A stretch of 64,000 nt of DNA from an uncultured Prevotella sp. (GTDB lineage: Bacteria > Bacteroidota > Bacteroidia > Bacteroidales > Bacteroidaceae): positions 563,927-627,926 of the forward strand of contig CAJODL010000001.1 of the NCBI GenBank assembly GCA_905233165.1, written 5' to 3'. How positions within the stretch are numbered: position 1 is the first letter of the stretch; each line of letters opens with the position of its first letter. The position numbers were made by a program, and so were the translations under genes. Below are positions 19,310 to 52,030 of this stretch, piece by piece. The notes under the pieces are model-generated. The model made no database searches. It was given only the letters and a program-made list of their open reading frames with translations, and had not been told where the DNA came from.

Positions 19310-19312
19310 ATA

Positions 19313-29926: not shown

Positions 29927-29982
29927 CCTTTGACCTTAGACCTTTGACCTTTGGCCTTAGACCTTAGACCTTTGACCTTTGA
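29920..29982. repeat. heptad tract (cctttga/ccttaga x9) from the HIT stop toward rbfA
   Basis: Nine in-register 7-mers. Confidence 0.9.
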
Positions 29983-29994
29983 CTTTTTATAATT

Positions 29995-35246: not shown

Positions 35247-35322
35247 TACCGCTTGCCCCAATTTTAAAGCCCCAATTTTAAAGCCCCAAAAATAAACGTA
35301 GGCTGCAAATGTGCAGCCTACG
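35247..35322. repeat. left copy of the 76-bp perfect inverted repeat (two 14-bp tandem units plus a terminator hairpin)
   Basis: taccgcttgccccaattttaaagccccaattttaaagccccaaaaataaacgtaggctgcaaatgtgcagcctacg is the exact reverse complement of 47996-48071. Confidence 0.95.
35297..35322. terminator. bidirectional terminator hairpin inside the left IR
   Basis: 11-bp stem cgtaggctgca/tgcagcctacg with a 4-nt loop. A T-rich run follows on both strands. Confidence 0.65.
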
Positions 35323-35385
35323 AACTTTTATCTTTTAATTTTTGACTCTCCACTCACAACTGACTCTAAACTCTTAACTTTGAAA
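35323..35385. repeat. heptad tract (aactttt atctttt aattttt gactctc cactcac aactgac tctaaac tcttaac tttgaaa)
   Basis: Nine in-register 7-mers between the left IR and the 3' end of the small minus-strand gene. Confidence 0.8.
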
Positions 35386-35562
35386 ATCATCCTTGATTTT
35401 CTTAATGTAGTAGTCCAGTCCGAATATAGAACCTGCGAGTAGGAAAGCTTGCGCTACATACATGAGTAGTCCGTTAGCCACGTCAGCTATGGTAAGTACT
35501 TGGTACGCCACCATCATTATTGAAGCGCAAGCATATTGTACTATGGAAAAACTCTTTCTCAT
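35374..35562 (-). CDS. small membrane protein (62 aa)
   Basis: MRKSFSIVQYACASIMMVAYQVL...; two hydrophobic helices. ATG 35562 preferred over the 35610 track start. Confidence 0.4.
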   Translation of the reverse strand: MRKSFSIVQYACASIMMVAYQVLTIADVANGLLMYVAQAFLLAGSIFGLDYYIKKIKDDFQS

Positions 35563-35657
35563 TACAACTGAGCACCCCCGATACCACCAGCGAGACCAGC
35601 AAGGATGCAATACGCTATACGAATAAGTATCGATTTAAAAGAACCATTTATTTTCAT
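35562..35657 (-). CDS. candidate 31-aa hydrophobic peptide (below the ORF-track cutoff)
   Basis: ATG at 35657 encodes MKINGSFKSILIRIAYCILAGLAGGIGGAQL. Its stop overlaps the next start (TAATG). Confidence 0.25.
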   Translation of the reverse strand: MKINGSFKSILIRIAYCILAGLAGGIGGAQL

Positions 35658-35659
35658 AA

Positions 35660-35729
35660 CTTTAAACTTTCTACTTTAAACTTTTAACTGCCTATAAACT
35701 TTACACTTTAAACTCTACACTCTACACTA
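35660..35729. repeat. heptad tract (ctttaaa ctttcta ... tacactc tacacta)
   Basis: Ten in-register 7-mers downstream of the HU-like gene. Confidence 0.85.
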
Positions 35730-35778
35730 TTTCCCACAACTCAATCCCCCCGAAGGGGGAAAGAGTTAGGGAAATCGT

Positions 35779-36390
35779 TTATCCCTCTTCCCAACCGTCG
35801 CCGGTGTTACCACCGCCGCCGTTGTTGCCGCCAGTGCTTGGTTCAGGGTCGGAGGGCTCATTCTGAGTATTCTGATTACTCTGATTACTCTGATTATTCT
35901 GAGTATTCTGAGAGCCCTCTGAGCCCTCCTCTGGGTCTTCCACCTCGCCAGCGTCAGAAGTGACACGCTTGATGATGTTGCCGTCCTTGTCGTAACAAGT
36001 GATGTTGATAGAAGTCTGCTTGAGTTCCTGCTTCAGGTCCACAGAAGGAGTGAACACGATACGACGAGAAGTGATGAGCTTTGATGCCACATCGTTTACA
36101 TCAGCGACGCTTTCAGAACGGAGTCCGAAACGCATGGTACCGAGTCCAGGGATTGCCACAGAGTGACCTTCAGTAGCCCATGCCTTGATTACCTCACCTG
36201 CTGCATCCCAACAAGCAGACATTACACCCTTAGAGACACCGCTACGCAGAGCAGCCTCTGAAATAACCTTGCTTTCGGAAAGTTTGCTGTAGAGCTCAGG
36301 CTTCAGCACATAGCGATAGCCAAGTGACTTCCCTTCCTTGTCGGAAAAATGACTGAGATCAGTCTCGATTGCTTTAACTTTAATAGACAT
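35779..36390 (-). CDS. Bacteroidota HU-related (histone-like) DNA-binding protein with a low-complexity C-terminal tail
   Basis: Core ...VISEAALRSGVSKGVM...VAIPGLGTMRFGL... resembles HU_rel proteins. The tail is QNTQNNQSNQSNQNTQNE...GGNNGGGGN. Confidence 0.7.
   Translation of the reverse strand: MSIKVKAIETDLSHFSDKEGKSLGYRYVLKPELYSKLSESKVISEAALRSGVSKGVMSACWDAAGEVIKAWATEGHSVAIPGLGTMRFGLRSESVADVNDVASKLITSRRIVFTPSVDLKQELKQTSINITCYDKDGNIIKRVTSDAGEVEDPEEGSEGSQNTQNNQSNQSNQNTQNEPSDPEPSTGGNNGGGGNTGDGWEEG
35860..35913. repeat. 9-bp-period tract (attctgagt/attctgatt/actctgatt) encoding the HU-like tail
   Basis: Six nonamers, in frame (Q-N-T/S repeats on the minus strand). Confidence 0.85.
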
Positions 36391-36453
36391 GATTTTGAAA
36401 ATTTTGAATTTTGATTGATTAATAATTTAACATTTCTCATGGCATCCTTCTTC

Positions 36454-36462
36454 TTATCCACA
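36454..36462 (+). promoter_or_regulatory. perfect DnaA-box 9-mer (TTATCCACA)
   Basis: Exact consensus 9-mer about 180 bp from the iteron-like arrays. A single occurrence could be chance. Confidence 0.3.
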
Positions 36463-36483
36463 ATCTTCAATCTTCAGTCTTCA
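36456..36483. repeat. heptad tract (atccaca atcttca atcttca gtcttca)
   Basis: Four 7-mers that overlap the DnaA-box-like 9-mer. Confidence 0.7.
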
Positions 36484-36557
36484 AAATTTTCTATGCGCAT
36501 GAAAATATTTTTTATGCTCTTGAAACGAAATAGCTGCGCGCTTGCTGATTTCTGATG

Positions 36558-36565
36558 CAAAGGTA
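36558..36565 (-). promoter_or_regulatory. -7 box (TAccTTTG, minus strand) for the HU-like gene
   Basis: caaaggta on the plus strand, about 170 nt upstream of the start at 36390. Confidence 0.4.
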
Positions 36566-36640
36566 CGACATATTTTTCTCTCACGAAAAATTAGCGTGGA
36601 TTTTAACATTTAGTCTTTTTGTGGTGGCTTCTGAGGTACG

Positions 36641-36676
36641 GTCGTAAAAGTCGTAAAAGTCGTTTTTGTCGTTTTA
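36641..36676 (+). repeat. array of four 9-bp iteron-like units (GTCGTAAAA x2, GTCGTTTTT, GTCGTTTTA)
   Basis: Read directly. Units 2-4 recur exactly at 46736-46762, and the array recurs in inverted form at 36846-36881. Confidence 0.9.
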
Positions 36677-36732
36677 GGGTTGCGGGCACGCATACGCATA
36701 TATATATATTATTAAATCTATTACTCACCCCC

Positions 36733-36752
36733 ATATAATATTAATATTATAT
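36733..36752. repeat. 20-bp perfect AT-only palindrome (atataatattaatattatat)
   Basis: Self-complementary. Lies between the two inverted 9-mer arrays, next to a (ta)n run at about 36699-36709. Confidence 0.9.
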
Positions 36753-36845
36753 CTCCCCCCTCTCTCTTCCTTTGCTTTTTACATTAGCATGTTATGTTTT
36801 TATCAAATCCAAAAGATGAAATAACAACAGGTTGCCAGAAAATGT

Positions 36846-36881
36846 AAAAACGACAAAAACGACAAAAACGACCAAAACGAC
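36846..36881 (-). repeat. array of four 9-bp units in inverted orientation (AAAAACGAC x3, CAAAACGAC)
   Basis: Reverse complement is GTCGTTTTG, then GTCGTTTTT x3. The 17-bp core gtcgtttttgtcgtttt is shared with the left array. Confidence 0.9.
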
Positions 36882-36893
36882 TGTTGATAAAAA

Positions 36894-36914
36894 CTTTAAA
36901 CTCTAAACTAAAAA
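36894..36914. repeat. heptad tract (ctttaaa ctctaaa ctaaaaa)
   Basis: Three 7-mers just after the right 9-mer array. Confidence 0.7.
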
Positions 36915-36951
36915 AACGAAGTGATTTTTTGCAGATATGGGGAAAAAGTAG

Positions 36952-36959
36952 TAAATTTG
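36952..36959 (+). promoter_or_regulatory. -7 box (TAaaTTTG) upstream of the RM-like pair
   Basis: taaatttg lies about 320 nt upstream of ATG 37279, which implies a long leader. Confidence 0.35.
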
Positions 36960-37278
36960 CAACCGCATCACACGATTACGATTGTGTGTTGAAGAGTGTG
37001 TAAGCGTACATTACTCGCAAATCTTAAGGGTTAAAATTAAAGACATTAGCAGTTATTAGGAGAACATAGAAACCTGAGAAATTTCTAAAATCCAAGCGAC
37101 CGATAGTTGTGAATGCCTGCGCTTATAGCGTGGACGTCACTTATCAGTTTGGTGGGCAATCTCAGGGCCTCTATGTTCGATAAGGAGCGGACACGCTTTT
37201 ATCGTGTATAGAGGTCTTGACGTTTTCAAGTCCCAAAGAATTCCGATAAGTGCTTTTGCCATTAGTTATAAGCACATT

Positions 37279-38331
37279 ATGTCCTCAAAGACCAAAGAGC
37301 CGTTGAATGTTGACGGCAAACTTCCCTATGTTGACATTCGGGAAGATGATCTGCGTAATATTTCGGAGGATGTATTAGAAGCACTTCTTCGAGACCATAC
37401 TACGCAGAAGAATATATTTTGGGCTACTCATGATTATGAGGAGTTAGGTGAAGGATATGAATACCATTCACCAATATTACCAAACCTAATCACTAAAGAA
37501 AATGGCTTGGTAATAAGACCTCGTGTGTTGAAAACAAAGGAAGAGCAAACAGCTCGTGCAAAGGGTAAAGCAGAAGTCTTTACTCCTTCGTGGGTTTGTA
37601 ATGCCCAGAACAATCTGGTTGATGAAGCATGGTTTGGAAGAAAGAATGTTTTCAATACAGAAAATTCTGCTAATCATACTTGGAGAGTAAACCATAACAA
37701 AATAGAGTTTCCAGAAGGTAAGACTTGGAGAGACTATGTGAAGGCTACTCGCATGGAGATAACTTGCGGTGAAGCTCCTTATCTTGTCAGTCGTTATGAT
37801 ACAACTACAGGCGAACCAATACCACTTGAAAGACGCATTGGTATTTTAGATAGAAAACTTCGTGTTGTAAGCGAAAATACTACCACTACCACACAATGGC
37901 TACAATGGGCCAGAGAGGCTTATAAAAGCACTTATGGATATGAGTGGCAAGGAGATAATCTCTTGCTTGCCAGAGAGGCTCTTTTGTGGAGTTTCTATGA
38001 GTATTATTATGCAAAGTTTGGCAAGAAACCACAAACCAAGTCAATGAAGTTTATTGCCTATATTGTTTCGTGGAATATATGGCAGATGGATGGCTTAAGG
38101 TGTGTGGTTCCTGATTCGTGCAAACATGGAGTAATAGAGAAGATACAAACCCTCTTTGGTGAAGAAGAAACCAAAGTAACTTGTCCTGGTTGTAATGAAG
38201 ATGATATTCATAAACACAATGGTATTTACTGCCTCATAAGAGATTGGGGAGTAAAGGACTTATGGACGAGAGAGAATAACAGAAAGATACGTTTTGTTGA
38301 CCTAATAACAGAAGAAGATGGCGACATTTGA
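37279..38331 (+). CDS. 350-aa partner protein of the helicase-methyltransferase fusion; MTase-like motif remnants plus a C-terminal Cys/His cluster; function unknown
   Basis: AEVFTPSWVCNAQNNL (motif X-like), EITCGEAPYL (degenerate motif I/IV-like, 37768-37782), C..H...CPGC..H.H...C. ATG 37279 preferred over GTG 37204. The 3' end overlaps the next gene by 14 nt. Confidence 0.65.
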   Translation: MSSKTKEPLNVDGKLPYVDIREDDLRNISEDVLEALLRDHTTQKNIFWATHDYEELGEGYEYHSPILPNLITKENGLVIRPRVLKTKEEQTARAKGKAEVFTPSWVCNAQNNLVDEAWFGRKNVFNTENSANHTWRVNHNKIEFPEGKTWRDYVKATRMEITCGEAPYLVSRYDTTTGEPIPLERRIGILDRKLRVVSENTTTTTQWLQWAREAYKSTYGYEWQGDNLLLAREALLWSFYEYYYAKFGKKPQTKSMKFIAYIVSWNIWQMDGLRCVVPDSCKHGVIEKIQTLFGEEETKVTCPGCNEDDIHKHNGIYCLIRDWGVKDLWTRENNRKIRFVDLITEEDGDI

Positions 38332-41300
38332 ATCATCATTAAAATCAAAACTGATTTATGTTTTTGCAATCCCAGATGAACGTCACAAGGATTGCCTAAA
38401 AATTGGAGAAACCACCATTGATGAAGATGATGGCAGTAATCTCTTTAATAATTCAGAAGTTCTACAGGAAGCAGCCCATCGTCGTATACGCCAATATACC
38501 AAGACGGCAGGCATAGCGTACCAGTTGCTATATACTGAGATAAGTATCTTCATGCATAGTGGCATGATAATGTCTTTTAATGACAAACAGGTGCATCATG
38601 TCTTGGAACGCTCTGGTATCAAGAAGAAGGAGTTTGACAACGTCAAAGGAGCCGATGAGTGGTATTGTTGCGACTTGGAAACTGTCAAGAAAGCAATACA
38701 AGCCATAAAACATGGCGAGACAAGCCTAAAGCCTTCAGATGTAACACAAGGACTTACCCCAATAATCTTCCGTCCAGAACAAAGAGAAGCTATAGACAAA
38801 ACACGCAAGCGCTTCAAAAAAGGCAACAATATGCTTTGGAATGCCAAGATGCGTTTTGGCAAGACTCTTTCTGCATTGCAACTTGTTAAGGAGGAGGAGT
38901 TTACAAGGACTCTTATATTGACCCATCGTCCTGTAGTCGATGAAGGTTGGTTTGAAGACTTCAATAAAATATTCTATGATCGTGATGACTATAAATATGG
39001 TTCACGGAATAAAGGCGAAGACTTCAACAAGTTAGAAAAACATTGTCCCAAGCAAAAGTACGTTTATTTTGCTTCTATGCAAGACCTGAGAGGCTCCGAA
39101 CAAGTAGGCGGCAAGTTTGATAAGAACGATAAAATCTTCTCCACTCCTTGGGATTTTATAATAATAGATGAAGCTCACGAAGGTACAAAGACAGAATTAG
39201 GGCAAAACGTAATAACAGAACTTATAAAGCCAACCACAAAAGTATTGCAGCTGTCAGGTACTCCATTTAACCTATTTGATGATTACACTGAGAACGAAAT
39301 CTTCACTTGGGATTATGTAATGGAGCAGAAAGCAAAACAGACTTGGGCAGTAGATAATCCATATGAGCCTAATCCATATGTTTCTTTGCCAGCAATAAAT
39401 ATATATACATACGACCTTGGAAACCTCATGTCTGAATATGCAGAGGATGAAAAGGCATTTAACTTCAAAGAATTTTTCAGGACAAGAGATGATGGTTCGT
39501 TTATCCATGATAATGATATAGACCGTTTTCTTGTGTTACTATGCAAGGAAGACAAAGACAGCCTCTATCCATATAGCAACGAAACATTCCGCAGGACATT
39601 CCGCCACACACTTTGGCTTGTGCCAGGAGTGAAATCAGCAAGGGCTTTGAGTGCAAAGCTTCAGTCACATCCTGTTTTTGGTAACTTCAAGATTGTCAAT
39701 GTTGCAGGAAATGGTGATGAAGATGAAGAGAATGACGAGGCATTACAGATGGTTAACAAGGCTATAGGTAGTGACCCAAGTCAGACCTATACCATTACAT
39801 TAAGTTGTGGAAGACTTACAACTGGTGTCAGCATCAAGCCTTGGACAGCAGTATTTATGATGGCAGGTTCTTTCAGTACTTCTGCAGCACAATATATGCA
39901 AACAATCTTCCGTGTCCAGACTCCTTTTGAATGTAATGGAAGGATGAAGGAACAATGTTATGCTTTCGACTTTGCTCCAGATAGGACGTTGAGAGTACTT
40001 GCAGAAGCAGCAAAGGTTTCAACCAAAGCAGGCAAACAATCGGATGAAGACCGAAGAATACTTGGCGATTTTCTGAACTTCTGTCCTATAATCTCCATCG
40101 ATGGCTCTCAGATGAAGCCATACGATGTGAACAAGATGATGAGCCAACTGAAAAAGGCTCAAATAGAACGTGTAGTACAAGGAGGTTTTGAAGATGTTGC
40201 CCTATATAATGATGAACTGCTGAAGCTAACAGATGTAGATTTAAAAGAATTTGCCAATCTGAAGAAGATAATCGGCTCTACGAAGGCTATGGCAAAGACT
40301 GCCGACATAGATGTAAATAATCAAGGCTTTACGAATGAGGAATACGAAGAGAAGGAACGCCTAGAGAAGAAACCAAAGAAGCAGCTTACACCTGAGGAAT
40401 TGGAACGTCTGAGAGAACTCAAGGAGAAGAATAATGAGCGGAAGAACGCTATCAGTATCCTTCGTGGAATTTCTATTCGAATGCCATTGCTTATCTATGG
40501 AGCAGAATTAAAGAATGAGGAAGACGAAATAACAATAGATAATTTTGCAACACTTGTTGATGACCAGTCATGGGAAGAATTTATGCCCAAAGGTGTTGAT
40601 AAGAAATACTTTGAAAAGTTCAAAAAATACTATGACCCAGACATATTCCGAGAGTCAGGAAAGCGAATTCGCGAAATGGCTCGTACAGCTGACAAGTTTA
40701 CTATTGAAGAGCGCATAGAACGTATTTCAGCCATCTTCAACACTTTCCGTAATCCAGACAAAGAAACCGTTTTAACTCCTTGGAGAGTAGTTAATATGCA
40801 TATGAGTGATTGCCTTGGAGGCTGGTGTTTCTATGATAAGAATTTTGAACATACTTTGGATGTTCCAAGATATGTAAATCAAGGCAAGGTGACGAAAGAC
40901 GTATTCCGTCCAGACAGCCATATTTTGGAAATAAATTCAAAGAGTGGTCTTTATCCGCTTTATGTTGCTTATAACATTTATCGCAGCAGAGTCGAGGCAG
41001 CAAAGGAGAAATACGGAGATGTTAGTCACGGCTTTGCTATGCAGCTATGGGATGCAACAATAGAGGAGAATGTCCTTGTGGTATGTAAAACCCCTATGGC
41101 GAAAAGTATAACCAAGCGCACCCTTGCAGGATTCCGTAATACAAGGGTGAATGCACAATATTATCCTAACCTTATAGAAAACATTTCAGAGAAGCCTGAA
41201 CTAGTAATCAATACCCTTCGTGATGGCAAACGCTTCTGGAAAATAAATCAAGATGAAACAATGAAAATAGACGCAATAGTAGGAAATCCGCCGTATCAGG

Positions 41301-42232
41301 TAAATGTGGGAATAAAAAAAGATAACTATGGAGTTCTAATTTTTGATAAATTTGTTCAGCTCTCAAAAAAAATGACTCCAAACTATATTTCAATGATTAT
41401 GCCATCTCGCTGGTTTACAGGAGGTAGAGGATTGGATACCTTCCGAGATGAAATGCTGAATGATAGAAGAATTTCTTTTATCAAAGATTTTGTTGATTCT
41501 AAAGAATGTTTCCCTGGAGTCGATATAGCTGGTGGTATTTGCTACTTTTTATGGGATAAGAAACACAATAGTGATTGTACTTTTGTTAGCCGAATAAGAG
41601 GAAAAGATACTAAAACTGTGAGAAAACTCAATGAATATGAATTATTCCCTCGTTATAATGAGGCTCTTTCTATTATAAGAAAAGTCACGGAGAAAAAAGA
41701 AAAAAACTTTTCTACTACAGTGGGACCTCAAACAGCATTTGGTTTTATTACGACATTTAGAAGCACTACAGAATACTTTGATGATGCTATTGCTTTATAT
41801 ACAAGTGGAGGCATAAATTATGTTAAAAGGGAGGAGGTCAAAAAAGCACAAGAGTGGATTGATTTATATAAAGTTATATTTTCAACAGCAACTGCTGAAC
41901 ATGCAGGTACACCAGATAAGAGTGGAAAATATAGAGTACTTTCATCCTTACGAATAATAAAACCTAAGGAAATATGTTCTCAAAGTTATTTTGTTGGGAA
42001 CGTTTTTAAAACACATGACGAGGCTGTTAATTGTATGGAATACTTGAAGACAAAATTTGTTAGATTCCTTTTACAACAATTAATAACAGGACAACATTTA
42101 AGTGCTGATAAATTTAGATTCGTCCCACTTCAGGATTTTACCCATTCTTGGACAGACGAAATGTTATACAAGAAATACAAATTTAATGAAGAAGAAATAT
42201 TGTTCATTGAATCCATGATAAAACCAATGTAA
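38318..42232 (+). CDS. 1304-aa fusion: T5orf172 (GIY-YIG superfamily) domain, SF2/ResIII DEAH helicase, coiled-coil linker and gamma-class N6-adenine DNA methyltransferase (Eco57I/TaqI-like) with a C-terminal TRD-like region
   Basis: LIYVFAI..LKIGETT..RRIRQY..DEWY; FGKT (GKT at 38858-38866); IIIDEAHEG (DEAH at 39167-39178); LSGTPF; TPWRVVNMH, ILEINSKSGLY, DAIVGNPPYQ (NPPY at 41285-41296). Confidence 0.85.
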   Translation: MATFESSLKSKLIYVFAIPDERHKDCLKIGETTIDEDDGSNLFNNSEVLQEAAHRRIRQYTKTAGIAYQLLYTEISIFMHSGMIMSFNDKQVHHVLERSGIKKKEFDNVKGADEWYCCDLETVKKAIQAIKHGETSLKPSDVTQGLTPIIFRPEQREAIDKTRKRFKKGNNMLWNAKMRFGKTLSALQLVKEEEFTRTLILTHRPVVDEGWFEDFNKIFYDRDDYKYGSRNKGEDFNKLEKHCPKQKYVYFASMQDLRGSEQVGGKFDKNDKIFSTPWDFIIIDEAHEGTKTELGQNVITELIKPTTKVLQLSGTPFNLFDDYTENEIFTWDYVMEQKAKQTWAVDNPYEPNPYVSLPAINIYTYDLGNLMSEYAEDEKAFNFKEFFRTRDDGSFIHDNDIDRFLVLLCKEDKDSLYPYSNETFRRTFRHTLWLVPGVKSARALSAKLQSHPVFGNFKIVNVAGNGDEDEENDEALQMVNKAIGSDPSQTYTITLSCGRLTTGVSIKPWTAVFMMAGSFSTSAAQYMQTIFRVQTPFECNGRMKEQCYAFDFAPDRTLRVLAEAAKVSTKAGKQSDEDRRILGDFLNFCPIISIDGSQMKPYDVNKMMSQLKKAQIERVVQGGFEDVALYNDELLKLTDVDLKEFANLKKIIGSTKAMAKTADIDVNNQGFTNEEYEEKERLEKKPKKQLTPEELERLRELKEKNNERKNAISILRGISIRMPLLIYGAELKNEEDEITIDNFATLVDDQSWEEFMPKGVDKKYFEKFKKYYDPDIFRESGKRIREMARTADKFTIEERIERISAIFNTFRNPDKETVLTPWRVVNMHMSDCLGGWCFYDKNFEHTLDVPRYVNQGKVTKDVFRPDSHILEINSKSGLYPLYVAYNIYRSRVEAAKEKYGDVSHGFAMQLWDATIEENVLVVCKTPMAKSITKRTLAGFRNTRVNAQYYPNLIENISEKPELVINTLRDGKRFWKINQDETMKIDAIVGNPPYQVNVGIKKDNYGVLIFDKFVQLSKKMTPNYISMIMPSRWFTGGRGLDTFRDEMLNDRRISFIKDFVDSKECFPGVDIAGGICYFLWDKKHNSDCTFVSRIRGKDTKTVRKLNEYELFPRYNEALSIIRKVTEKKEKNFSTTVGPQTAFGFITTFRSTTEYFDDAIALYTSGGINYVKREEVKKAQEWIDLYKVIFSTATAEHAGTPDKSGKYRVLSSLRIIKPKEICSQSYFVGNVFKTHDEAVNCMEYLKTKFVRFLLQQLITGQHLSADKFRFVPLQDFTHSWTDEMLYKKYKFNEEEILFIESMIKPM

Positions 42233-42341
42233 AATTGAAAAAAAAATATTGTCTCTACAATAATTTGCAGAGTCAAATGTTAAAATGTATCAAAAAAACC
42301 TCTGGTAAGAGGATGGGTTATTTTTGTAAATAATTTTTTTG

Positions 42342-42349
42342 TAACTTTG
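42342..42349 (+). promoter_or_regulatory. -7 box (TAacTTTG) for the 42373 gene
   Basis: taactttg lies 24 nt upstream of ATG 42373. Confidence 0.45.
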
Positions 42350-42372
42350 CACGAGGCAAAAAAAATAAAGAA

Positions 42373-42885
42373 ATGACTCAGAAAGAAGCATTGGAACAGG
42401 CTCTTAAAGATTTAGGTGGACGCGCTCCGCTAAAAGATATCTATCCTATAGCATTAAAGTATTGTACACATAAAGAGGGCAGTAAAATAAAGGAAGCATT
42501 AAGATCATGTATACATAGGGATCGAAGTAAATTCATCCCTTCACCAGGCAAACCTGTTGGCTGGTGGGAGTTAACATCATTTCAGGAAGATGTTGCCCAA
42601 ATGAAGACTCACATCCAAGAGTTAGAAGAGGAAAATGAAAGATTGAGAAAAGTTCCTACGGAAGATGATTTCGTAGAGAGATTTATAAAGCAAGTGAAGA
42701 CTTTTCTAAAACGTGATAAGAAGTCAGTTGACGAGATAAGGAAGATATTAGTGGCATTAAATCGTGCAGATGCTGCAAAAGATCTTGATAACTGGATAGA
42801 AGAGAATGATACTCCTTTGCTGTCTATCGGTTCAGCAAGTGACATCATAGAGAGAGGTGGAAAGAAAATAGTTAATAACAGATAG
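42373..42885 (+). CDS. winged-helix (Mrr_N/HARE-HTH-like) plus coiled-coil protein
   Basis: N-terminal QKEALEQALKDLGGRAPLKDIYPIAL... resembles restriction-system N-terminal wHTH domains. Central region is heptad-rich (QELEEENERLRK). Confidence 0.55.
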   Translation: MTQKEALEQALKDLGGRAPLKDIYPIALKYCTHKEGSKIKEALRSCIHRDRSKFIPSPGKPVGWWELTSFQEDVAQMKTHIQELEEENERLRKVPTEDDFVERFIKQVKTFLKRDKKSVDEIRKILVALNRADAAKDLDNWIEENDTPLLSIGSASDIIERGGKKIVNNR

Positions 42886-42894
42886 AGAAAGACA

Positions 42895-43311
42895 ATGTCT
42901 ATATACATAAGAGGTAATGTGATCGGCGACGTCATAGAAGCTGGGGCAGTGAAGAATGAGACTCACTACCACTATGAGGGTGAGCAGAAAGCGGAGGAAA
43001 AACAAGGCAATATCAACAACGTAAATGAATTGCCTAAAGAACTTCTGACGGATGAGGCCCAGGTGTTGTGGCAAAGTCTAAGAGATAATGGATTTATTGT
43101 TGCTGATGGTTATGATTTGGCTAAAGGTGTGTCAAGCAACCAAGCGACTTACATAGCTGATTGTATGGCTGAAAGGCTGGATATCCAAAACAAATGGAAG
43201 GTGTTTGAACAGTTATGGGGTATTAAACATATGGCTCAGATGGCTGGATCTTGGAAACAAACAGGCAAGGAACCATCCCGCGCAAATGAAATTCGAGAGC
43301 TTTTAGAATAG
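42895..43311 (+). CDS. hypothetical protein (138 aa)
   Basis: ORF lies 10 nt after the previous stop. No recognised motif. Confidence 0.5.
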   Translation: MSIYIRGNVIGDVIEAGAVKNETHYHYEGEQKAEEKQGNINNVNELPKELLTDEAQVLWQSLRDNGFIVADGYDLAKGVSSNQATYIADCMAERLDIQNKWKVFEQLWGIKHMAQMAGSWKQTGKEPSRANEIRELLE

Positions 43312-43353
43312 GTTGAATATCAACCGATTAGGGTCTTATATAAGTCTTATGGT

Positions 43354-43379
43354 AGGTCTTATATAAGACCTTTTTTTTT
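43354..43379 (+). terminator. rho-independent terminator
   Basis: Palindrome aggtcttatataagacct followed by a T9 run. Confidence 0.6.
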
Positions 43380-43390
43380 GTCCCTTTATT

Positions 43391-43398
43391 TACCTTTG
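43391..43398 (+). promoter_or_regulatory. -7 box (TAccTTTG) for the replication-module genes
   Basis: tacctttg lies 75 nt upstream of ATG 43473. Confidence 0.45.
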
Positions 43399-43472
43399 CA
43401 CTCAGAAATCCAGAACAATTCTGGTCGTGCAAGGGAATAGTTCCATGTGCGTACATATTTAATAACAAAATT

Positions 43473-43757
43473 ATGGAAACAAAGATTTTAAAAGTGGTAC
43501 GTCAGGGCGAGGCCTTCAATGTACCGAGTAAGACGACTGAATCGGGAGAGATTCAGAAATGTAACATTGTGTTGAAAGAGCTTGGAAGCTCGAAGTACGA
43601 GAATGAGTATTCATGTGTCATGCTGGGCAACCTGGCCGGATGCAAATTTGCAGAGGGGAGCATCGTGGCAGCTACTCTGAAGTTCTCAACTCACGAAAAC
43701 AACGGTGCGACCTATCAGGACATCCTGGCAACGGACATTGTGACGGTTAAGGGTTAA
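43473..43757 (+). CDS. small OB-fold-like protein (DUF3127-like, from recall)
   Basis: 94 aa. The length and pattern (MExKILKVV....G......VLKE...... F.EG..V...L.F...E.NG..YQDI.A..I) resemble DUF3127. Confidence 0.45.
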   Translation: METKILKVVRQGEAFNVPSKTTESGEIQKCNIVLKELGSSKYENEYSCVMLGNLAGCKFAEGSIVAATLKFSTHENNGATYQDILATDIVTVKG

Positions 43758-43807
43758 AGGTTAACGGTTAAAGGTCTAAAACTTAATTTTCAATTTTCAA
43801 TTAACTT
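43745..43807. repeat. heptad tract (ggttaag ggttaaa ggttaac ggttaaa ggtctaa aacttaa ttttcaa ttttcaa ttaactt)
   Basis: Nine in-register 7-mers that start within the last codons of the 43473 gene. Confidence 0.85.
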
Positions 43808-43890
43808 GAGTTGAAGGGGAGGAGTCTTCACGTGATTAAAGATGGCCATCGGATTTCCGAAACTTCTCTCGCTAAAAACAACTCAAAGAA

Positions 43891-44235
43891 ATGATTAAAA
43901 AGATTTTTATAAAAAACGAAAAGCAAGTTATGAACGTCCTGAAGAAAGGACAAGTGGTGGAAGGTCGTTTGAGAATAGAAAGGGCAGATGATGGCAGAAT
44001 ATGCATATGCTTCAAGGCATGGGAACGTACTGCTCCGAAATGCGGACATCGTGACAGAGGCAAGATAATAATGAGGACTGAACATGGATGGGTGAAGGAA
44101 TCGAAGGAAAGGATTAAAACCTATGAGAGCGTGCCGAAAGACCTTGGCAAGCAGAAGGTCGTGGCAATACTGGATAGGGATACGTATGAGGCGTGTGACT
44201 TCCTTATGTCTTACTCGGAAACTAATAACTTTTAA
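43891..44235 (+). CDS. hypothetical basic protein (114 aa)
   Basis: ORF immediately upstream of the primase-helicase gene (8-nt gap). Confidence 0.45.
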   Translation: MIKKIFIKNEKQVMNVLKKGQVVEGRLRIERADDGRICICFKAWERTAPKCGHRDRGKIIMRTEHGWVKESKERIKTYESVPKDLGKQKVVAILDRDTYEACDFLMSYSETNNF

Positions 44236-44243
44236 TACCGAAT

Positions 44244-46742
44244 ATGGAAAGAGTATATAGTTATATAGACGGTGTGACGGATACGAAACCCAAGCCGTTG
44301 ACAAGGGAGAAATTCCATGAACTCTGCAAAGCACCACGCACAAGGAAACTTGTGCGTGACTTCCAACAGGGTAACGGGGAGGCAAAGAAAAAACTGCCTG
44401 CTGCCATGTTTCTCGGATTTCAAACACAGGGTGACCGCATACAGGAACATATGGAGCCTACGCAACTTTACCTAATTGATATCGACCATATCAGTAACAA
44501 GAACGAGGACATGACCCCTGAAATGGTATGGGAGAAGATAAGACAGGAGATGGAGGTGGCGCAATATGACTTCATGGTAAGACTTGTTCACAAGACTCCA
44601 AGTGGTGATGGGCTGAGAATTGTGCTACATGCTACGGAGAACTTCGAGACTCTGGAAGAACATGCCGAATGGTTGAGAAAGGAACTCGACCTGGACAGAT
44701 ATGGAAAATTTGACTGCCTGAAAAATCTCGACAGGGTGTCGTTCATAATTCCTGAAGAATACATCCTCCTTGAAAGTCCATGTCTGTGGGATGAGACAGA
44801 AGAAGGTGGACCGATAAAGAAGAAAACGAAGGATGAAGGACGAAAGACGAAGGACGATAACCATAACGTTAACGAAAACAACTCTCAACTGTCAACTTTC
44901 AACTCTAAACTGAACGATGACGGGGAACCTATCTTGTGGGAGGGGTATGACATTCAGAAGATTATCGATGACCGATACAGAAGGGGGGTGCCTGGGGCAG
45001 GAAACATATCGAGGCATGATCAGAGCTTGAAACTGGCACGTGACCTTCTTATTATGTTCGACCGCGATAAGAGCCTTGTTCTCAGAATATTGCTTAGGCA
45101 GAGCTGGATAAAGGACATAATTAAGGAACGCAACGAACCTGTTGAAAAAACGATTGAAGCGGCTCTGACTTATGCTAACGGCAAGGATGGTGGAAAGTAT
45201 GCCCTGACATACAGGTATCTGACGCCTGCAACGCAAAACTCTATACTGCATGTAACGGGAAATACATGGAAAGAATGGATAGCAGAACTTGATGCGAAGT
45301 TTGAAGAAACTCTGGAAGAAAGAAACGATAACGAAAACGAAAACCAGGACGAAAACTATGACGAAGACGATGACGAAGAAGATGCTGTTGCGACTATGCC
45401 GCCTGCACCACCTGTGATAAGGGAACTGATATCTATTGCTCCAAAGGATTTCGTGATACCTGCCATCAATGCTCTGATGCCAATACTGGGTACGTTGACA
45501 TCATACGTAAGGGCTGAGGACAAGCAGGATGCGAAAACGATATCTACAACATTCTTCTCCATAATCTATGCTCCGCCATCATCGGGTAAAAGCTTCGTTG
45601 ATAGGTATATCAACTACCTCATGCGTGACCTCTACAGACGAGACGAACTGAATGATGCAAGGGATGAAGTTTATGCAAGGGCTGACCAACAGAAAGGTCA
45701 GAACGTGCATGGAGAGCCACTGCCACTGACTACGATACGCATAATGGAGGCAAAGAGCTCTGAAACAGAGTTTCTGCAGAAACAGAGAAACAACAAGGGG
45801 CATCATATGTTTACGTACTGTTCGGAGATAGACCAGTGGCGCAAAGGTGTAAAGGCTGCAGGTGGTAATAAGGACGACATGATACGCATAGCATGGGACA
45901 ATGGACGATATGGACAGAAATACAAATCAACCATGTCCTTTAAGGGTAAGGTGTTCCTGTACTGGAATGTGCTCATAGCAGGTACCGACGATCAGTTACG
46001 GGCGTATTTTAAGAATGTGACGAACGGACTGGTGACGAGATGCTGCTTTCAGGAGATAAAGAACCAGGAATTTCAGGAAGTCCCCCCAGAATGGAAGACC
46101 TTGAACAAGAAGGAACGGAAGGTTATAGACAATTTTATAGAAAAGTGTGACCGGATGACCTATACAGAGCCTCTTACCTACGACGTGGAGCAATGCTATA
46201 GCGTGGCCGACAAAGACTTTGACGCAGAGGTGCCATGGCGGATGGACTTCAAACCCCTGATAACTGTTAATATCGATTGGATAATGCCCACAATAGCACG
46301 GTTCAACAGAGAGCATTGCAGAAAGGCGATGATGGACAATGATAGAGCTCATGACACTTTTCGCAGACGAGTAGGAACAAGAGCTAAGAGACTGGCATTG
46401 TTATGTACCCAGTTGTATGAAAAATCCATGACACAGGCTGACAAAAAAGCTTGCGCAAAGTGGATAGCATGGTGGATGGAACAGGATATAAAAGGTATAA
46501 TGAGACCATTCGCAAACAAATACAGAAAAGCTATAGAAGAAGATACTCCTGACAATACTCCACGAAAGACTCTGTTTGAACGACTGCCTGAAGAATTTTC
46601 GAAAGAAGACGTAAGAAGAATGGCTGATATCTTGGGATATAAGACGAGTGTTAGAGAAATTACTTTCAGGTGGAAGAAAATAAATATTATAGAGAAAATG
46701 ACAAATGATACTTGGAGGAAAATTACAGAGAAAAAGTCGTAA
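44244..46742 (+). CDS. primase-helicase: VirE_N/BT4734-like N-terminal primase domain plus DUF3987-type P-loop helicase domain
   Basis: N-terminal KKLPAAMFLG.....R....PTQLYLIDIDH pattern. Low-complexity linker. Walker A PPSSGKSF (GKS at 45585-45593). Confidence 0.75.
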   Translation: MERVYSYIDGVTDTKPKPLTREKFHELCKAPRTRKLVRDFQQGNGEAKKKLPAAMFLGFQTQGDRIQEHMEPTQLYLIDIDHISNKNEDMTPEMVWEKIRQEMEVAQYDFMVRLVHKTPSGDGLRIVLHATENFETLEEHAEWLRKELDLDRYGKFDCLKNLDRVSFIIPEEYILLESPCLWDETEEGGPIKKKTKDEGRKTKDDNHNVNENNSQLSTFNSKLNDDGEPILWEGYDIQKIIDDRYRRGVPGAGNISRHDQSLKLARDLLIMFDRDKSLVLRILLRQSWIKDIIKERNEPVEKTIEAALTYANGKDGGKYALTYRYLTPATQNSILHVTGNTWKEWIAELDAKFEETLEERNDNENENQDENYDEDDDEEDAVATMPPAPPVIRELISIAPKDFVIPAINALMPILGTLTSYVRAEDKQDAKTISTTFFSIIYAPPSSGKSFVDRYINYLMRDLYRRDELNDARDEVYARADQQKGQNVHGEPLPLTTIRIMEAKSSETEFLQKQRNNKGHHMFTYCSEIDQWRKGVKAAGGNKDDMIRIAWDNGRYGQKYKSTMSFKGKVFLYWNVLIAGTDDQLRAYFKNVTNGLVTRCCFQEIKNQEFQEVPPEWKTLNKKERKVIDNFIEKCDRMTYTEPLTYDVEQCYSVADKDFDAEVPWRMDFKPLITVNIDWIMPTIARFNREHCRKAMMDNDRAHDTFRRRVGTRAKRLALLCTQLYEKSMTQADKKACAKWIAWWMEQDIKGIMRPFANKYRKAIEEDTPDNTPRKTLFERLPEEFSKEDVRRMADILGYKTSVREITFRWKKINIIEKMTNDTWRKITEKKS
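44826..44916. repeat. 13-heptad tract inside the primase-helicase CDS (acgaagg-type words switching to ctNtcaa-type words)
   Basis: acgaagg atgaagg acgaaag acgaagg acgataa ccataac gttaacg aaaacaa ctctcaa ctgtcaa ctttcaa ctctaaa ctgaacg. Confidence 0.85.
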
Positions 46743-46762
46743 AAGTCGTTTTTGTCGTTTTA
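46736..46762 (+). repeat. third copy of the 9-mer array (GTCGTAAAA, GTCGTTTTT, GTCGTTTTA)
   Basis: 27 bp identical to 36650-36676. Overlaps the primase-helicase stop codon (46740-46742). Confidence 0.9.
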
Positions 46763-46796
46763 TCAAAAATTGTTTTACATTAAATAATAAGTAAAG

Positions 46797-47288
46797 ATGG
46801 GAATACAAAAGAGCAGATATGCAAGTTATAAAGAAACGCCAGCCTATCGTAACAGGAATCCGTTGAACATACGATGGTCGGCAAAGAATAAGTGGCAGGG
46901 CCAGACAGGATGTGACACAAGAGGTTTTGCCAAGTTTGAGAGCCTGAGCTACGGCTATCGTGCAGCAGTGAAGATACTGCATCGGTACAAGACAAACGGA
47001 TGGAAGACCATAGCGGAGGTGATACGCCATTGGGCACCATCTACAGAGAATTCCACCGAGAGTTATATAAAAACCGTGTGTAACCTGATGGCACAACGGC
47101 AGAGTGAGTTGGGAACAATAACCCCACAGACACAGGTGGACTTGAGAAACAGAAATCTTGTGATAAACCTTCTCTTAATGATGACCAAGGTGGAGACGGG
47201 ATGGAGTACAACGGCAGTATTGTCAATGAGGGAGTATATCGGGATGGGTTACGACCTCGCCGCAACAAGTCCGGAGTTTTTTAAATAA
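46797..47288 (+). CDS. phage-associated conserved hypothetical protein (163 aa)
   Basis: NPLNIRWS..NKWQG....GFAKFESLSYGYRAAVKIL..Y...GWKTIAEVIRHWAPSTENSTESYIKTV. The pattern is recalled from phage proteins, but function is not established. Confidence 0.5.
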   Translation: MGIQKSRYASYKETPAYRNRNPLNIRWSAKNKWQGQTGCDTRGFAKFESLSYGYRAAVKILHRYKTNGWKTIAEVIRHWAPSTENSTESYIKTVCNLMAQRQSELGTITPQTQVDLRNRNLVINLLLMMTKVETGWSTTAVLSMREYIGMGYDLAATSPEFFK

Positions 47289-47296
47289 CAAAACAG

Positions 47297-47330
47297 AGGC
47301 TGCATTTGGTTGCAGCCTTTGATTTATTTA
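47297..47330 (+). terminator. rho-independent terminator
   Basis: Stem aggctgca (47297-47304) pairs with tgcagcct (47311-47318), then a T-rich tail. The stem core is the same as in the IR hairpins. Confidence 0.55.
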
Positions 47331-47364
47331 ATTGTAAAAGATAAAAGTTAATAGTTTTTAGTTT

Positions 47365-47484
47365 ATGAACGATAAGAAAAATATTTGGCAGGTGTTGGCG
47401 AAGGTGATAGTAGCCGCACTGACAGCAGCGCTCACAGCTGTTACAACAACGTCATGTATGGGATTTGGACCTATGTTAAGTTGA
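47365..47484 (+). CDS. 39-aa small membrane/lipoprotein-like peptide ('smalltalk'-like, from recall); below the ORF-track cutoff
   Basis: ATG 47365 encodes MNDKKNIWQVLAKVIVAALTAALTAVTTTSCMGFGPMLS, then a stop. Confidence 0.5.
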   Translation: MNDKKNIWQVLAKVIVAALTAALTAVTTTSCMGFGPMLS

Positions 47485-47530
47485 GAGTTTAGAGTTTAGA
47501 GTTGAGAGTCAGTTTAAAAGTTTATAGTTT
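47479..47530. repeat. heptad tract (gagttta/gagttga/gtttata) filling the spacer before the DUF5675 gene
   Basis: About 7 in-register 7-mers. Confidence 0.8.
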
Positions 47531-47992
47531 ATGGAACTAATTTTAAAAAGAATAGCAAAACGTAAAGGTTATACAATAGGAATACTCTACCTCTCCCCCT
47601 TGGGGGAGTCGGAGAGGGGTTATCTTTGCGACACTCTTGAGCCGCCGTGTATTGAGATGAAGGTGGACAGGACAGTTGAGGAGGTGCTGAATGATAAGAG
47701 TCTCCTGAAGTCTATCAAGCCGTGTGCGATACCGGAAGGGGAATACAGGGTCAGTATGACATACAGCCCAAGGTATAAAACGCAGCTGCCGTTGATAACG
47801 GGTGACAGCCGCTTTAACAGCCTCTGGCAAGGCATCCGCATCCACGCCGGCAACACCGCAAAGGATACACAAGGTTGCATCCTGGTAGGAGAAAACCAAA
47901 TCGTAGGAATGGTGATAAATTCGCGTATCACCTTGAAGACCCTCCTGACTTTCCTTAAAGGGAGGGATGTAAAGTTGAGAGTGAAAAGTTAA
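47531..47992 (+). CDS. DUF5675-family protein
   Basis: GYLCDTLEP...IPEGEY.V.....SPRY...LPLI......GIRIHAGNTAKDTQGCILVGEN matches the recalled DUF5675 pattern. Confidence 0.65.
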   Translation: MELILKRIAKRKGYTIGILYLSPLGESERGYLCDTLEPPCIEMKVDRTVEEVLNDKSLLKSIKPCAIPEGEYRVSMTYSPRYKTQLPLITGDSRFNSLWQGIRIHAGNTAKDTQGCILVGENQIVGMVINSRITLKTLLTFLKGRDVKLRVKS

Positions 47993-47995
47993 TTG

Positions 47996-48033
47996 CGTAG
48001 GCTGCACATTTGCAGCCTACGTTTATTTTTGGG
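47996..48033 (+). terminator. rho-independent terminator after the DUF5675 gene (inside the right IR)
   Basis: 11-bp stem, 4-nt loop, then tttattttt. Confidence 0.7.
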
Positions 48034-48071
48034 GCTTTAAAATTGGGGCTTTAAAATTGGGGCAAGCGGTA
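47996..48071. repeat. right copy of the 76-bp perfect inverted repeat
   Basis: Exact reverse complement of 35247-35322. Confidence 0.95.
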
Positions 48072-48134
48072 GCTTTGCGAAAATAGCTTATATATAAAAT
48101 AAAAAAGGTCAGCATATTTTGCTGGCCTTTTATG

Positions 48135-48205
48135 TTGTCCTAGGCGGATTCGAACCACCACAAACAGAACCAAAACCTGTTGTGCTACCATTACACCATA
48201 GGACA
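48135..48205 (-). tRNA. tRNA-Gln (anticodon UUG)
   Basis: Folded by hand: acceptor TGTCCTA/TAGGACA, D arm GTGT/GCAC, anticodon stem ACAGG/TCTGT with loop TTTTGGT, T arm GGTGG-TTCGAAT-CCGCC. 71 nt; CCA is not encoded. Confidence 0.9.
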
Positions 48206-52029: not shown

Positions 52030-52030
52030 A

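Follow-up and report, generated by a model that had tools for sequence, protein, structure and literature searches.

Chromosomal defence hotspots without mobility genes are known in Pseudomonas, as core defence hotspots, and in Vibrio, as variable defence elements. P4-like elements and PICIs, satellites with defence hotspots (Rousset et al. 2022, PMC9122126), are 10–15 kb long, adjoin a tRNA gene, carry a replication module of iterons and a primase-helicase, and swap unrelated anti-phage systems in a defined slot between conserved backbones. A cluster of genes for an HU-family protein, smalltalk (NF033879), cell-wall hydrolases of the Amidase_2 type and a VirE/BT4734-type primase has been interpreted as a locus that may act in crosstalk (Sberro et al., bioRxiv 10.1101/494179). 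At a smaller scale, the BOX elements of Streptococcus pneumoniae and the REP/BIME elements of enterobacteria are short (~40–105 nt), have many intergenic copies and a conserved hairpin, often lie between convergent genes and can terminate transcription; BOX is built of boxA-(boxB)n-boxC tandem sub-units. Here we describe a 12.8-kb segment of an uncultured Prevotella sp., lying at 35247–48071 of the 64-kb stretch that was analysed (the window), which shares features with all of these systems. Our reading, to which we assign a probability of about 0.72, is that dispersed terminator repeats flank a real, recombinase-less mosaic island with swappable cargo.

As in the chromosomal defence hotspots, one pair of core genes, a GT2-DUF4922-SpoIID fusion gene and tRNA-Gln(ttg) (48134..48205, minus strand, the right border), can hold nothing, a toxin gene, a Type I restriction-modification (RM) system or the island. 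In the relative L034 synteny is fully conserved and the site is empty, with one terminator hairpin and no copy of the repeat between the SpoIID-type stop codon and tRNA-Gln. At the same site L035 carries a YoeB-like toxin gene, L031 the repeat with an S24 peptidase and a Type I RM system, and L014 the left end of the island with an additional gene inside the repeat. The segment is thus not invariant among relatives, and the preliminary description was right to read it as an island; sequence comparison gives good support to a real insertion in a variable hotspot. Homologous recombination in the flanking sequence is the simplest explanation for the turnover of occupants. Unlike the Pseudomonas and Vibrio hotspots, this one holds an island whose conserved, replicon-like backbone recurs beside other neighbours.

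The ends of the segment had been described as a perfect 76-bp inverted repeat abutting the stop codon of a 1211-aa gene on the left and lying close to the 3′ end of tRNA-Gln on the right, and both statements hold. The left copy (35247..35322, plus strand) is the exact reverse complement of the right copy (47996..48071, minus strand; 76/76), and with its inward extension the match covers 81 nt at 98%. The left copy begins 3 nt past the TAG stop (35241–35243) of the 1211-aa SpoIID-fusion gene; the right copy lies 62 nt from the 3′ end of tRNA-Gln, which retains its own terminator hairpin (~48104–48131) in between. Each copy consists of TACCGCTTG, two 14-nt CCCCAATTTTAAAG units, the variant unit CCCCAAAAATAAA and a hairpin, CGTAGGCTGCA-AATG-TGCAGCCTACG, with an 11-bp stem on the inner side, a motif that appeared in 0 of 100 shuffled sequences. 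On the left TACCGCTTG is a truncated outer module; on the right a full, diverged outer module runs on to ~48103. The window holds just these two copies.

Beyond the window, the repeat recurs in relatives. In GTDB and metagenome scans together, its core is nearly unchanged in ~13 other chromosomal contexts of related Prevotellaceae, a near-identity that arises partly by construction because the collection scans were exact-match; the match nevertheless runs past the searched pattern at L019 (100% over 73 nt) and L021 (100% over 96 nt). A 20-mer scan of GTDB genomes retrieved full copies on 4 contigs of one Prevotellaceae MAG and another beside tRNA-Gln in UBA7017, a 24-mer metagenome scan retrieved 13 further loci, and one related Prevotellaceae MAG has at least five copies. 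The layout is modular: an optional outer module, zero to three CCCCAATTTTAAAG units as counted, CCCCAAAAATAAA and the hairpin. A unit-like variant often precedes the run of CCCCAATTTTAAAG units. These comparisons support the conclusion that the two arms of the 76-bp inverted repeat are both copies of one short intergenic element, modular in build and dispersed in this Prevotellaceae lineage. The perfect identity of the two copies is a property of the repeat family rather than a sign of an island-specific duplication. The repeat shares with BOX and REP/BIME the features listed above, including for BOX the modular build; it is unrelated to them in sequence, is lineage-restricted, having been seen in a few Prevotellaceae MAGs and metagenome contigs only, and, unlike them, is strongly polar.

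This polarity suggests what the repeat does. In nearly all copies core genes lie on the unit side and island-type genes (HU/2-TM ORF, DUF5675, primase, S24) on the hairpin side, and the repeat nearly always sits at the 3′ end of a gene running into the hairpin and TTTATTTTT; in ~12 of 13 scorable copies the hairpin-side gene points toward the hairpin. The hairpin is also the top terminator-like site of the region in a terminator scan. From sequence and gene orientation, we infer that the hairpin with TTTATTTTT would be the intrinsic terminator of the hairpin-side gene. In the window the right copy offers these elements to the 3′ end of the DUF5675 gene, and the left copy appears terminator-like in both directions, for the SpoIID-fusion gene (plus strand) and for the operon of the HU gene and the 2-TM ORF (minus strand). 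Both end operons of the island face outward, HU-HIG with the 2-TM ORF leftward and DUF5675 rightward, and each ends in a copy of the repeat; the copies are therefore inverted, with hairpins inward. The last of three options in the preliminary description was that a dispersed repeat containing a terminator flanks the segment by chance. Many unrelated loci in relatives carry the same element, and this option is supported, with one refinement: the position of the repeat is no pure accident, since its copies normally form the 3′ end of the two modules that make up the island's outward-facing ends.

The same observations bear on the possibility that the inverted repeats act as the functional ends of a non-autonomous mobile element, served in trans by a Y1/HUH recombinase guided by the hairpin or by a serine recombinase that would insert whole modules at the hairpin base. 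The empty site in L034 has neither copy; both therefore arrived together with the inserted DNA, which fits a terminal role too, as does the polarity of nearly all copies. Four loci keep the unit-side flank and diverge from the first base after the hairpin, as a site-specific joint would also predict; L010 and L030 have a flipped hairpin loop; and a small serine recombinase is encoded in L021, a related island. However, no target-site duplication is present at the island ends (flanks ...TAGCGT and GCTTTG...), profile searches found no recombinase in the island, and single copies lie between ordinary convergent genes (C10 peptidase/MatE). The terminal repeat is also absent from L042, the one relative in which both ends can be seen, and the backbone of L044 ends at another terminator, without the repeat. 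We regard this possibility as quite unlikely, and the earlier suggestion of a repeat marking element ends, as in a transposon, finds no support given the lack of a target-site duplication and transposase and the single copies elsewhere.

Perfect inverted homology of 76–81 nt is long enough for homologous recombination, and the repeat could in principle drive inversion of the 12.7-kb segment, by RecA or an invertase, so that both orientations would coexist in the population. At another locus with the repeat, L010 and L024 differ in an inversion-like way, and metagenome contigs break close to the left end of the island. The breaks are accounted for by a multi-copy ~350-nt small-ORF module (35255–35607), however, and the island contains no invertase gene. 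Every contig crossing the right junction (L001, L002, L005) has the same orientation, while no same-species contig spans the left junction. Inversion would moreover alter nothing obvious, because both ends bear the same bidirectional terminator, and we consider it very improbable.

Between the dispersed repeats, four parts make up the mosaic island: a left arm, an iteron control region, a replaceable cargo slot and a conserved replication/lysis backbone. The left arm encodes a 203-aa HU-HIG family DNA-binding protein (35779..36390, minus strand; PF18291 49.5 bits, with a weak TIGR01201 match) and, downstream of it, a conserved 62-aa ORF with two predicted TM segments (35374..35562, minus strand). 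The latter was absent from the earlier gene list and has copies at 75–95% aa identity in L010, L014, L024, L025, L027 and L030 (tblastn). The control region (36391..36943), conserved at 91% identity in L044, contains 9-nt iterons in direct (36637–36676) and inverted (36847–36885) orientation around an AT-rich 170 nt, and is by sequence a candidate origin or operator. A third iteron block (46732..46762, plus strand), an exact 31-nt repeat of 36646–36676, overlaps the primase stop codon; it is kept in L044 and L045, and L044 keeps the whole iteron triple.

The cargo slot (36944..43451, plus strand; GC 37–38%) starts ~8 nt upstream of a TAnnTTTG −7 box, TAAATTTG, at 36952–36959. On the plus strand it encodes a Type II MTase (37279–38331; PADLOC MTase_II 1e-126), a 1304-aa ResIII-helicase/Eco57I-MTase fusion (38318–42232; Pfam ResIII and Eco57I, with a PADLOC IIG match at the C-terminus), and proteins of 170 aa (42373–42885) and 138 aa (42895–43311), followed by a terminator (43354–43371).

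The backbone operon, on the plus strand throughout, begins with an SSB/PriB-like OB-fold protein of 94 aa (43473..43757) whose family has at least 2466 clusters; its AF2 model (pLDDT 75) matches PriB and SSB in Foldseek (E ~1e-3, TM 0.55–0.68). It is followed by a 114-aa protein (43891..44235), upstream of the primase in L038, L041, L042 and L044 as well and without a match in family profile searches, and by an 832-aa primase-helicase (44244..46742) with a BT4734-like AEP N-terminal domain and a DUF3987 ATPase (PF08800 23.3 bits; PF13148 23.8 bits, below its cutoff; phrog_18375), homologues of which are common in Prevotella. Next come a 163-aa endolysin-like (lysozyme-like) protein (46797..47288; phrog_873, 1e-33), which follows the primase in the same four relatives, and a terminator hairpin (47294–47321) with compensatory changes in L044. 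The conserved backbone ends at 47348. After it lies an add-on of smalltalk (39 aa, DUF6486; 47365..47484, plus strand; NF033879 27.2 bits against a cutoff of 24.7, PF20096 in gene calls) and a 153-aa DUF5675 protein (47531..47992, plus strand; PF18925 85 bits; phrog_1501), the latter a candidate C82-like cell-wall peptidase (preprint 10.64898/2026.04.11.717860) and a module that occurs alone with the repeat in L011. Profiles and structure thus bear out the HU-like, RM, OB-like, primase-helicase and lysis-like genes of the preliminary description but not the wHTH that it had assigned to the 170-aa protein. Its statement that all parts are AT-richer than the flanks (~46% GC) applies to the cargo and control region (35–38%) but not to the HU, primase and lysis parts, which are flank-like at 42–45%.

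Evidence of exchange comes from L044, which matches the window at 91% over 36329–36943 and at 92–96% over 43452–47348; homology stops exactly at 36943/36944 and restarts at 43452. Its cargo is unrelated (a DUF1016 nuclease and an MmeI-like IIG RM) and its right-hand neighbours differ. The order OB protein, 114-aa protein, primase is common to L038, L041, L042, L021 and L026, in most with the lysozyme-like gene next, and upstream of it lie Type I RM, MTases, S24, Bro/ANT or nuclease genes; no integrase was found in these islands. The proposed cargo slot with a defence module is borne out by this combination of one backbone with other cargo in L044, L038, L021, L026 and L042, while the suggestion that the element is decayed is unlikely, given the very high conservation of the backbone proteins, which spans thousands of clusters.

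Could the island be a genuine PICI/P4-type phage satellite, which excises, replicates and is packaged by a helper phage? The replication module of OB protein, primase-helicase and iterons, the lysis-like genes, the variable defence slot, the S24 repressor-like and Bro-N/ANT genes of relatives and a backbone 96% identical beside other right-hand neighbours are all consistent with this idea. Against it, searches of the 10 island ORFs against Pfam, PHROGs, NCBIfam and PADLOC agree with the preliminary description in finding no integrase, transposase, capsid or terminase family; excisionase, terS and other packaging or capsid-remodelling genes are likewise absent. The island ends have no partial tRNA copy, direct repeats or att duplication, and the insertion is not in the tRNA itself; its lysis-like genes also set the island apart from P4-like elements and PICIs. 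Neither the primase nor the OB protein has a relative among 2.9 M IMG/VR contigs, and 50,697 records of a phage collection gave just one weak match. We therefore consider a true satellite unlikely, and retain "phage-satellite-like" as an analogy that covers the replication module and lysis-like genes.

A further alternative is that the backbone is a domesticated chromosomal system rather than mobile DNA, with HU, smalltalk, the cell-wall hydrolases and the VirE-type primase acting jointly in cell-cell crosstalk or abortive-infection defence. The HU, small TM protein, amidase and VirE neighbourhood is recurrent in gut Bacteroidetes (bioRxiv 10.1101/494179), BT4734-type primases occur in defence contexts (PMC11724360; PADLOC matches), and the strong conservation and host-like GC of the backbone would suit such a role. 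The report on that neighbourhood does not describe the insertion hotspot, OB-fold protein, iterons or swappable RM slot, however, and the hydrolases here are phrog_873-like and DUF5675 rather than Amidase_2. Presence varies at the locus and neighbours differ among relatives, 96% nucleotide identity despite other right-hand neighbours argues for recent movement, and iterons with an SSB-like protein and a primase-helicase are a replicon signature. This alternative appears improbable to us.

We favor the model of a mosaic island flanked by dispersed terminator repeats, in which RM activity, termination and iteron replication are read from the sequence. The island would be integrase-less and replicon-derived, with the primase-helicase and OB protein acting on the iterons. 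Its cargo slot, placed between two Bacteroidetes-type promoters, would be exchanged by recombination, and the island itself would be gained and lost through homologous recombination in flanking core genes or repeats rather than by a recombinase of its own.

Altogether, comparison with related genomes indicates that the 12.8-kb segment at 35247-48071 is a real insertion at a hotspot between a conserved core gene and tRNA-Gln. The core gene (31608-35243, forward strand) encodes a fusion of a GT2 glycosyltransferase, a DUF4922 domain and a SpoIID domain and is kept in all relatives examined. Syntenic contigs were reached through homologues of a 586-aa protein in the right flank and supplied the presence/absence and empty-site comparison that the preliminary description had asked for. 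In L034, a relative whose flank protein is 84% identical, about 55 nt with one bidirectional terminator lie between the SpoIID-type gene and tRNA-Gln, and this site carries no trace of the repeat that ends the island. The corresponding slot in the contigs L035 and L036 is about 560 nt long and contains a YoeB-family toxin gene. In L031, a UBA7017-like contig, the slot opens with the same repeat beside tRNA-Gln and its next 9.5 kb or more contain an S24 peptidase and a Type I RM system, and in the uncultured Prevotellaceae MAG CAMJIL01 the SpoIID side holds the repeat and then a small-ORF module as in the window. With an empty site in L034 and varying occupants elsewhere, the segment is not syntenic and invariant in all relatives.

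From sequence comparison we conclude that the island belongs to a widespread, uncharacterised and recombinase-less family in which a replicon-like backbone is joined to a swappable defence slot. The closest comparison comes from an 81.6-kb scaffold, L044, which matches the window in two blocks. The first (window 36329-36943, 91%) covers the iteron region together with the 5' end of HU; the second (43452-47348, 92-96%) covers the OB protein, the 114-aa protein, the primase and the lysozyme-like gene with its terminator at 47294-47321, whose stem is preserved in L044 via compensatory changes. Between the blocks L044 carries cargo unrelated to the window's (genes for a DUF1016 nuclease and an MmeI-like Type IIG enzyme, plus two unknowns), an exchange of RM and nuclease genes that bears out the defence cargo slot proposed earlier. 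The right-hand neighbours of L044 differ from the window's as well. A TAnnTTTG promoter box follows closely on the left edge of the slot, the right edge falls about 20 nt before the start codon of the OB gene, and the junctions at 36943/36944 and 43451/43452 provide defined points for mining cargo. The order OB protein, 114-aa protein and primase is kept in the more distant relatives L038, L041, L042, L021 and L026, in most of which the lysozyme-like gene comes next after the primase. Their upstream genes encode Type I RM, methyltransferase, S24, Bro-N/ANT or nuclease proteins, and no integrases were found in their islands. L042, bounded by HU-HIG on one side and by the lysozyme-like gene on the other, is without a terminal inverted repeat (IR), and we therefore rejected the IR as a family trait.

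In the window's own slot, the first 140 aa or so of a 1304-aa protein (38318-42232, forward strand) are unassigned; the protein further comprises a ResIII/SNF2-like helicase and an Eco57I-type methyltransferase whose C-terminus is Type IIG-like, and translational coupling links it to a separate Type II methyltransferase (37279-38331). As judged from its predicted domains, this pair is an unusual RM architecture; a PDB sequence search with the 1304-aa protein returned no relative. The island's contents had been described as AT-rich throughout, which is true of the cargo and control region, whereas the backbone equals the host in GC. Elsewhere in the window, a second low-GC stretch lies at 15000-26000, where GC is about 40% compared with 44-46% on either side, and may likewise have been acquired.

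The backbone carries a predicted replication module made up of a 94-aa SSB/PriB-like protein and an AEP-DUF3987 primase-helicase. The 94-aa protein, first noted as OB-like, does have a predicted OB domain with PriB and SSB as the nearest solved structures, and is represented by at least 2466 clusters. Replication modules of mobile elements are known to include BT4734-type primases and DUF3987 ATPases (PMC5862659; PMC11724360). Two blocks of 9-nt iterons (AAAAGTCGT...), arranged as an inverted pair at 36646-36676 and 36847-36885, flank an AT-rich stretch upstream of the cargo, and an exact 31-nt copy of the first block (46732-46762) overlaps the primase stop codon. From their layout, the iteron blocks are candidates for an origin or an autoregulatory operator. 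The triple arrangement is kept in L044 and in a further relative, L045. Only these two share it; elsewhere among the relatives the primase stop is followed by short tandem arrays of a different kind, with no second copy within reach, and the idea that an iteron block after the primase is typical of the family was therefore discarded.

A primase-helicase and an origin, all predicted only, are what a phage satellite of the PICI or P4 type would bring, and the preliminary description had suggested that the island may be phage-satellite-like. The replication part of that comparison stands, based on the AEP N-terminal domain with DUF3987, the SSB/PriB-like OB protein and the conserved iterons. The rest does not: no integrase or excision genes and no packaging or capsid-redirecting genes were detected, and neither the primase nor an alignment of the OB protein found relatives in IMG/VR. 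Among island ORFs of at least 94 aa, scans against Pfam, PHROGs, NCBIfam and PADLOC gave no integrase, transposase, capsid or terminase family, as had been stated from the sequence. The primase had no match in a plasmid collection, a single weak match (23%) to an unannotated 5.5-kb fecal contig in a phage collection, and no relative in a PDB sequence search.

The island does overlap with a gene neighbourhood of HU, small TM protein, amidase and VirE noted by Sberro et al. (bioRxiv 10.1101/494179). All four gene types co-occur here: an HU-type protein matching PF18291, a smalltalk protein (NF033879, above cutoff), a VirE-type primase (PF08800, above cutoff) and cell-wall hydrolases, which in this case are phrog_873 and PF18925 instead of Amidase_2. 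The latter, DUF5675, has been proposed elsewhere as a C82-like lysin (10.64898/2026.04.11.717860). Literature searches gave no account of the repeat or of the island family, the closest being the note on this neighbourhood.

The IR that brackets the island is perfect over 76 bp, as first reported: 35247-35322 is the reverse complement of 47996-48071 at 76/76 positions, and with its inward extension the match covers 81 nt at 98%. The layout described earlier also holds, each copy running from outside to inside through TACCGCTTG, two units of CCCCAATTTTAAAG, the variant unit CCCCAAAAATAAA and the hairpin CGTAGGCTGCA-AATG-TGCAGCCTACG, with the hairpins facing inward. Its outer ends are likewise almost exactly where they had been placed: the left copy starts 3 nt past the stop codon of the 1211-aa fusion gene, and 62 nt separate the right copy from the 3' end of tRNA-Gln, whose own terminator hairpin is retained. 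The outer module is truncated in the left copy and full but diverged in the right. The hairpin motif arose in 0/100 shuffled sequences, and thus the IR is not a product of chance. An 8-bp stem core, AGGCTGCA/TGCAGCCT, is common to the repeat hairpin and the terminator at 47294-47321 after the lysozyme-like gene.

Short tandem arrays of period 7 (or 14/21) are frequent in the 64-kb window, with about 40 in all and a different heptamer in each; examples lie at 7279-7310, 29495-29521, 29919-29987, 52028-52103, 55025-55195, 59940-59982 and 63386-63465. As far as inspected they occupy mostly intergenic spacers adjoining gene starts or ends, and at least two (35033-35084 and 44826-44911) lie within coding sequence. 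Related loci share the habit, and the 14-nt units of the IR are consistent with it. The window also holds an exact 77-nt direct repeat (60555-60631 and 63090-63166, 2.5 kb apart) with a third partial copy at its end.

Three readings of the IR had been offered: that it marks element ends, that it mediates inversion, or that it is a dispersed, terminator-containing repeat that happens to flank the island. The first, in the sense of transposon ends, is not supported by the junctions, where the flanks TAGCGT| and |GCTTTG show no target-site duplication and no direct repeat brackets the island, and by the lack of any transposase family match among island ORFs, which together led us to reject a TIR transposon or MITE. 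Classic tRNA-att integration was rejected too: we found no integrase and no att repeats with a partial tRNA 3' end, the tRNA 3' 24-mer occurs once at up to 3 mismatches, and the insertion sits beyond the terminator of tRNA-Gln. As for an invertible segment of the Hin/Gin or shufflon kind, the island has no resolvase or invertase, such a gene being seen only in L021, a relative; every contig that crosses the right junction agrees in orientation, and the left is spanned by no independent contig, exact-protein look-ups with the FtsX and RbfA flank genes having given at most a 2.6-kb contig. An integron cassette with attC was set aside since there is no integrase, the stem is perfect, the sequence is nearly invariant and the cargo carries its own promoter.

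The third reading is the one that copies elsewhere favor. Public collections were scanned with short exact sub-patterns of the repeat, which recover near-identical copies only, and the repeat family may be larger and more diverse than the counts that follow. Across GTDB, sampled at one genome for each species, 8 loci carry the unit junction CCCCAATTTTAAAGCCCCAA. It is present on four contigs of MAG CAMJIL01, with the full element on three; the fourth (L014, CAMJIL010000026.1) has units and, 1.9 kb off, a separate copy of variant unit and hairpin, bringing this MAG to at least 5 copies. The MAG UBA7017 has the full element adjoining its own tRNA-Gln, and a metagenome scan with CCCCAAAAATAAAYGTAGGCTGCA added 13 further loci. 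After orthologous loci were merged, about 13 distinct and unrelated chromosomal contexts remained among relatives, a spread over intergenic loci like that of REP, BIME or BOX repeats. Copies are modular: 0-3 units were counted, often with a unit-like variant ahead of them, and the outer module comes in at least three alternative forms. Identity outruns the searched pattern, reaching 100% over 73 nt in L019 and over 96 nt in L021 against the window, and thus the similarity between the two copies in the window is no greater than that of copies from other organisms. A 53-mer and a 24-mer of the repeat had no match in IMG/VR, and Rfam reported only tRNA across the whole window. In L014 a 542-aa gene with a weak FISUMP-like C-terminus interrupts the repeat after its second unit and ahead of the variant unit (about 200-2310) and is bracketed by a GCCYCAAAAAT direct repeat that resembles a target-site duplication.

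The hairpin has the form of an intrinsic terminator, a GC-rich stem of 11-12 bp with 7 GC pairs followed by TTTATTTTT in the hairpin-to-units direction, downstream of a gene reading in. It is the top terminator-like site of the region in a terminator scan, and RNA fold z-scores are -2.95 for the right copy and -4.21 and -4.04 for the two strands of the left. In about 12 of the 13 copies with a visible hairpin-side gene, that gene is transcribed toward the hairpin; among these genes are a primase, a MatE transporter, DUF5675 and HU-HIG with a small ORF. Downstream of the SpoIID-fusion gene, the left copy is the sole terminator-like structure. The end units of the island face outward, with HU-HIG and a conserved 62-aa 2-TM ORF (reverse strand) leftmost and DUF5675 (forward strand) rightmost, and since each of these operons finishes in a repeat copy, the copies must be inverted with their hairpins inward, which is sufficient alone to account for the IR. 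The IR is thus best read, on its sequence and setting, as one portable terminator that closes a mosaic island at each of its outward-facing ends, and as neither transposon ends nor an inversion switch. Two uses of one such terminator can be enough to surround an island with a long perfect IR, and the IR itself would be ordinary. Turnover of the island would probably rest on homologous recombination, via either the core flanks or the repeats.

We also considered a more active role, in which the hairpin repeat would be the cis-acting joint of an undescribed cassette-like system that moves island modules, and judge it improbable. At four loci (tRNA-Gln, a SpoIIE-like gene, a C10 peptidase gene and a GldJ-like gene) the unit-side flank is conserved and the hairpin side diverges from the first base past the hairpin; because the unit flank is constant and the break falls exactly at the hairpin base, the repeat could be a recombination joint. 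Its unit side usually points toward core genes, and the same hairpin closes several island modules (HU with the 2-TM ORF, DUF5675, S24 units and the primase backbone). Modules would in that case be moved and shuffled by a recombinase encoded elsewhere or by repeat-guided homologous recombination. Two further observations concern rearrangement near the repeat. L010 (1-3112) and L024 (1-417) both join the 3' end of the C10-peptidase gene and the repeat to the small-ORF/HU module, but the relative orientation of the two parts is reversed between these contigs, a difference that resembles an inversion with breakpoints in heptamer arrays. At about 3040 in L010 and about 7500 in L030 the hairpin loop is flipped (CATTT for AAATG) with the stem unchanged, the expected outcome of recombination between inverted copies inside a palindromic stem. 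Were the repeat such a joint, the SSB/primase/HU backbone would be an integrase-less replicative island spreading RM cargo across Prevotellaceae, and perhaps Bacteroidales-wide.

With the island read as a mosaic ending in portable terminators, a very common and so far roleless neighbourhood of gut Bacteroidetes (HU, smalltalk, cell-wall hydrolase and VirE-type primase) gains a testable structure: an SSB/PriB-like protein with iterons, no recombinase, and a sharply bounded slot that exchanges RM and nuclease systems. If this is true, the family would point to a large store of anti-phage genes in Prevotella that is still unexplored, and to a way in which they may spread.
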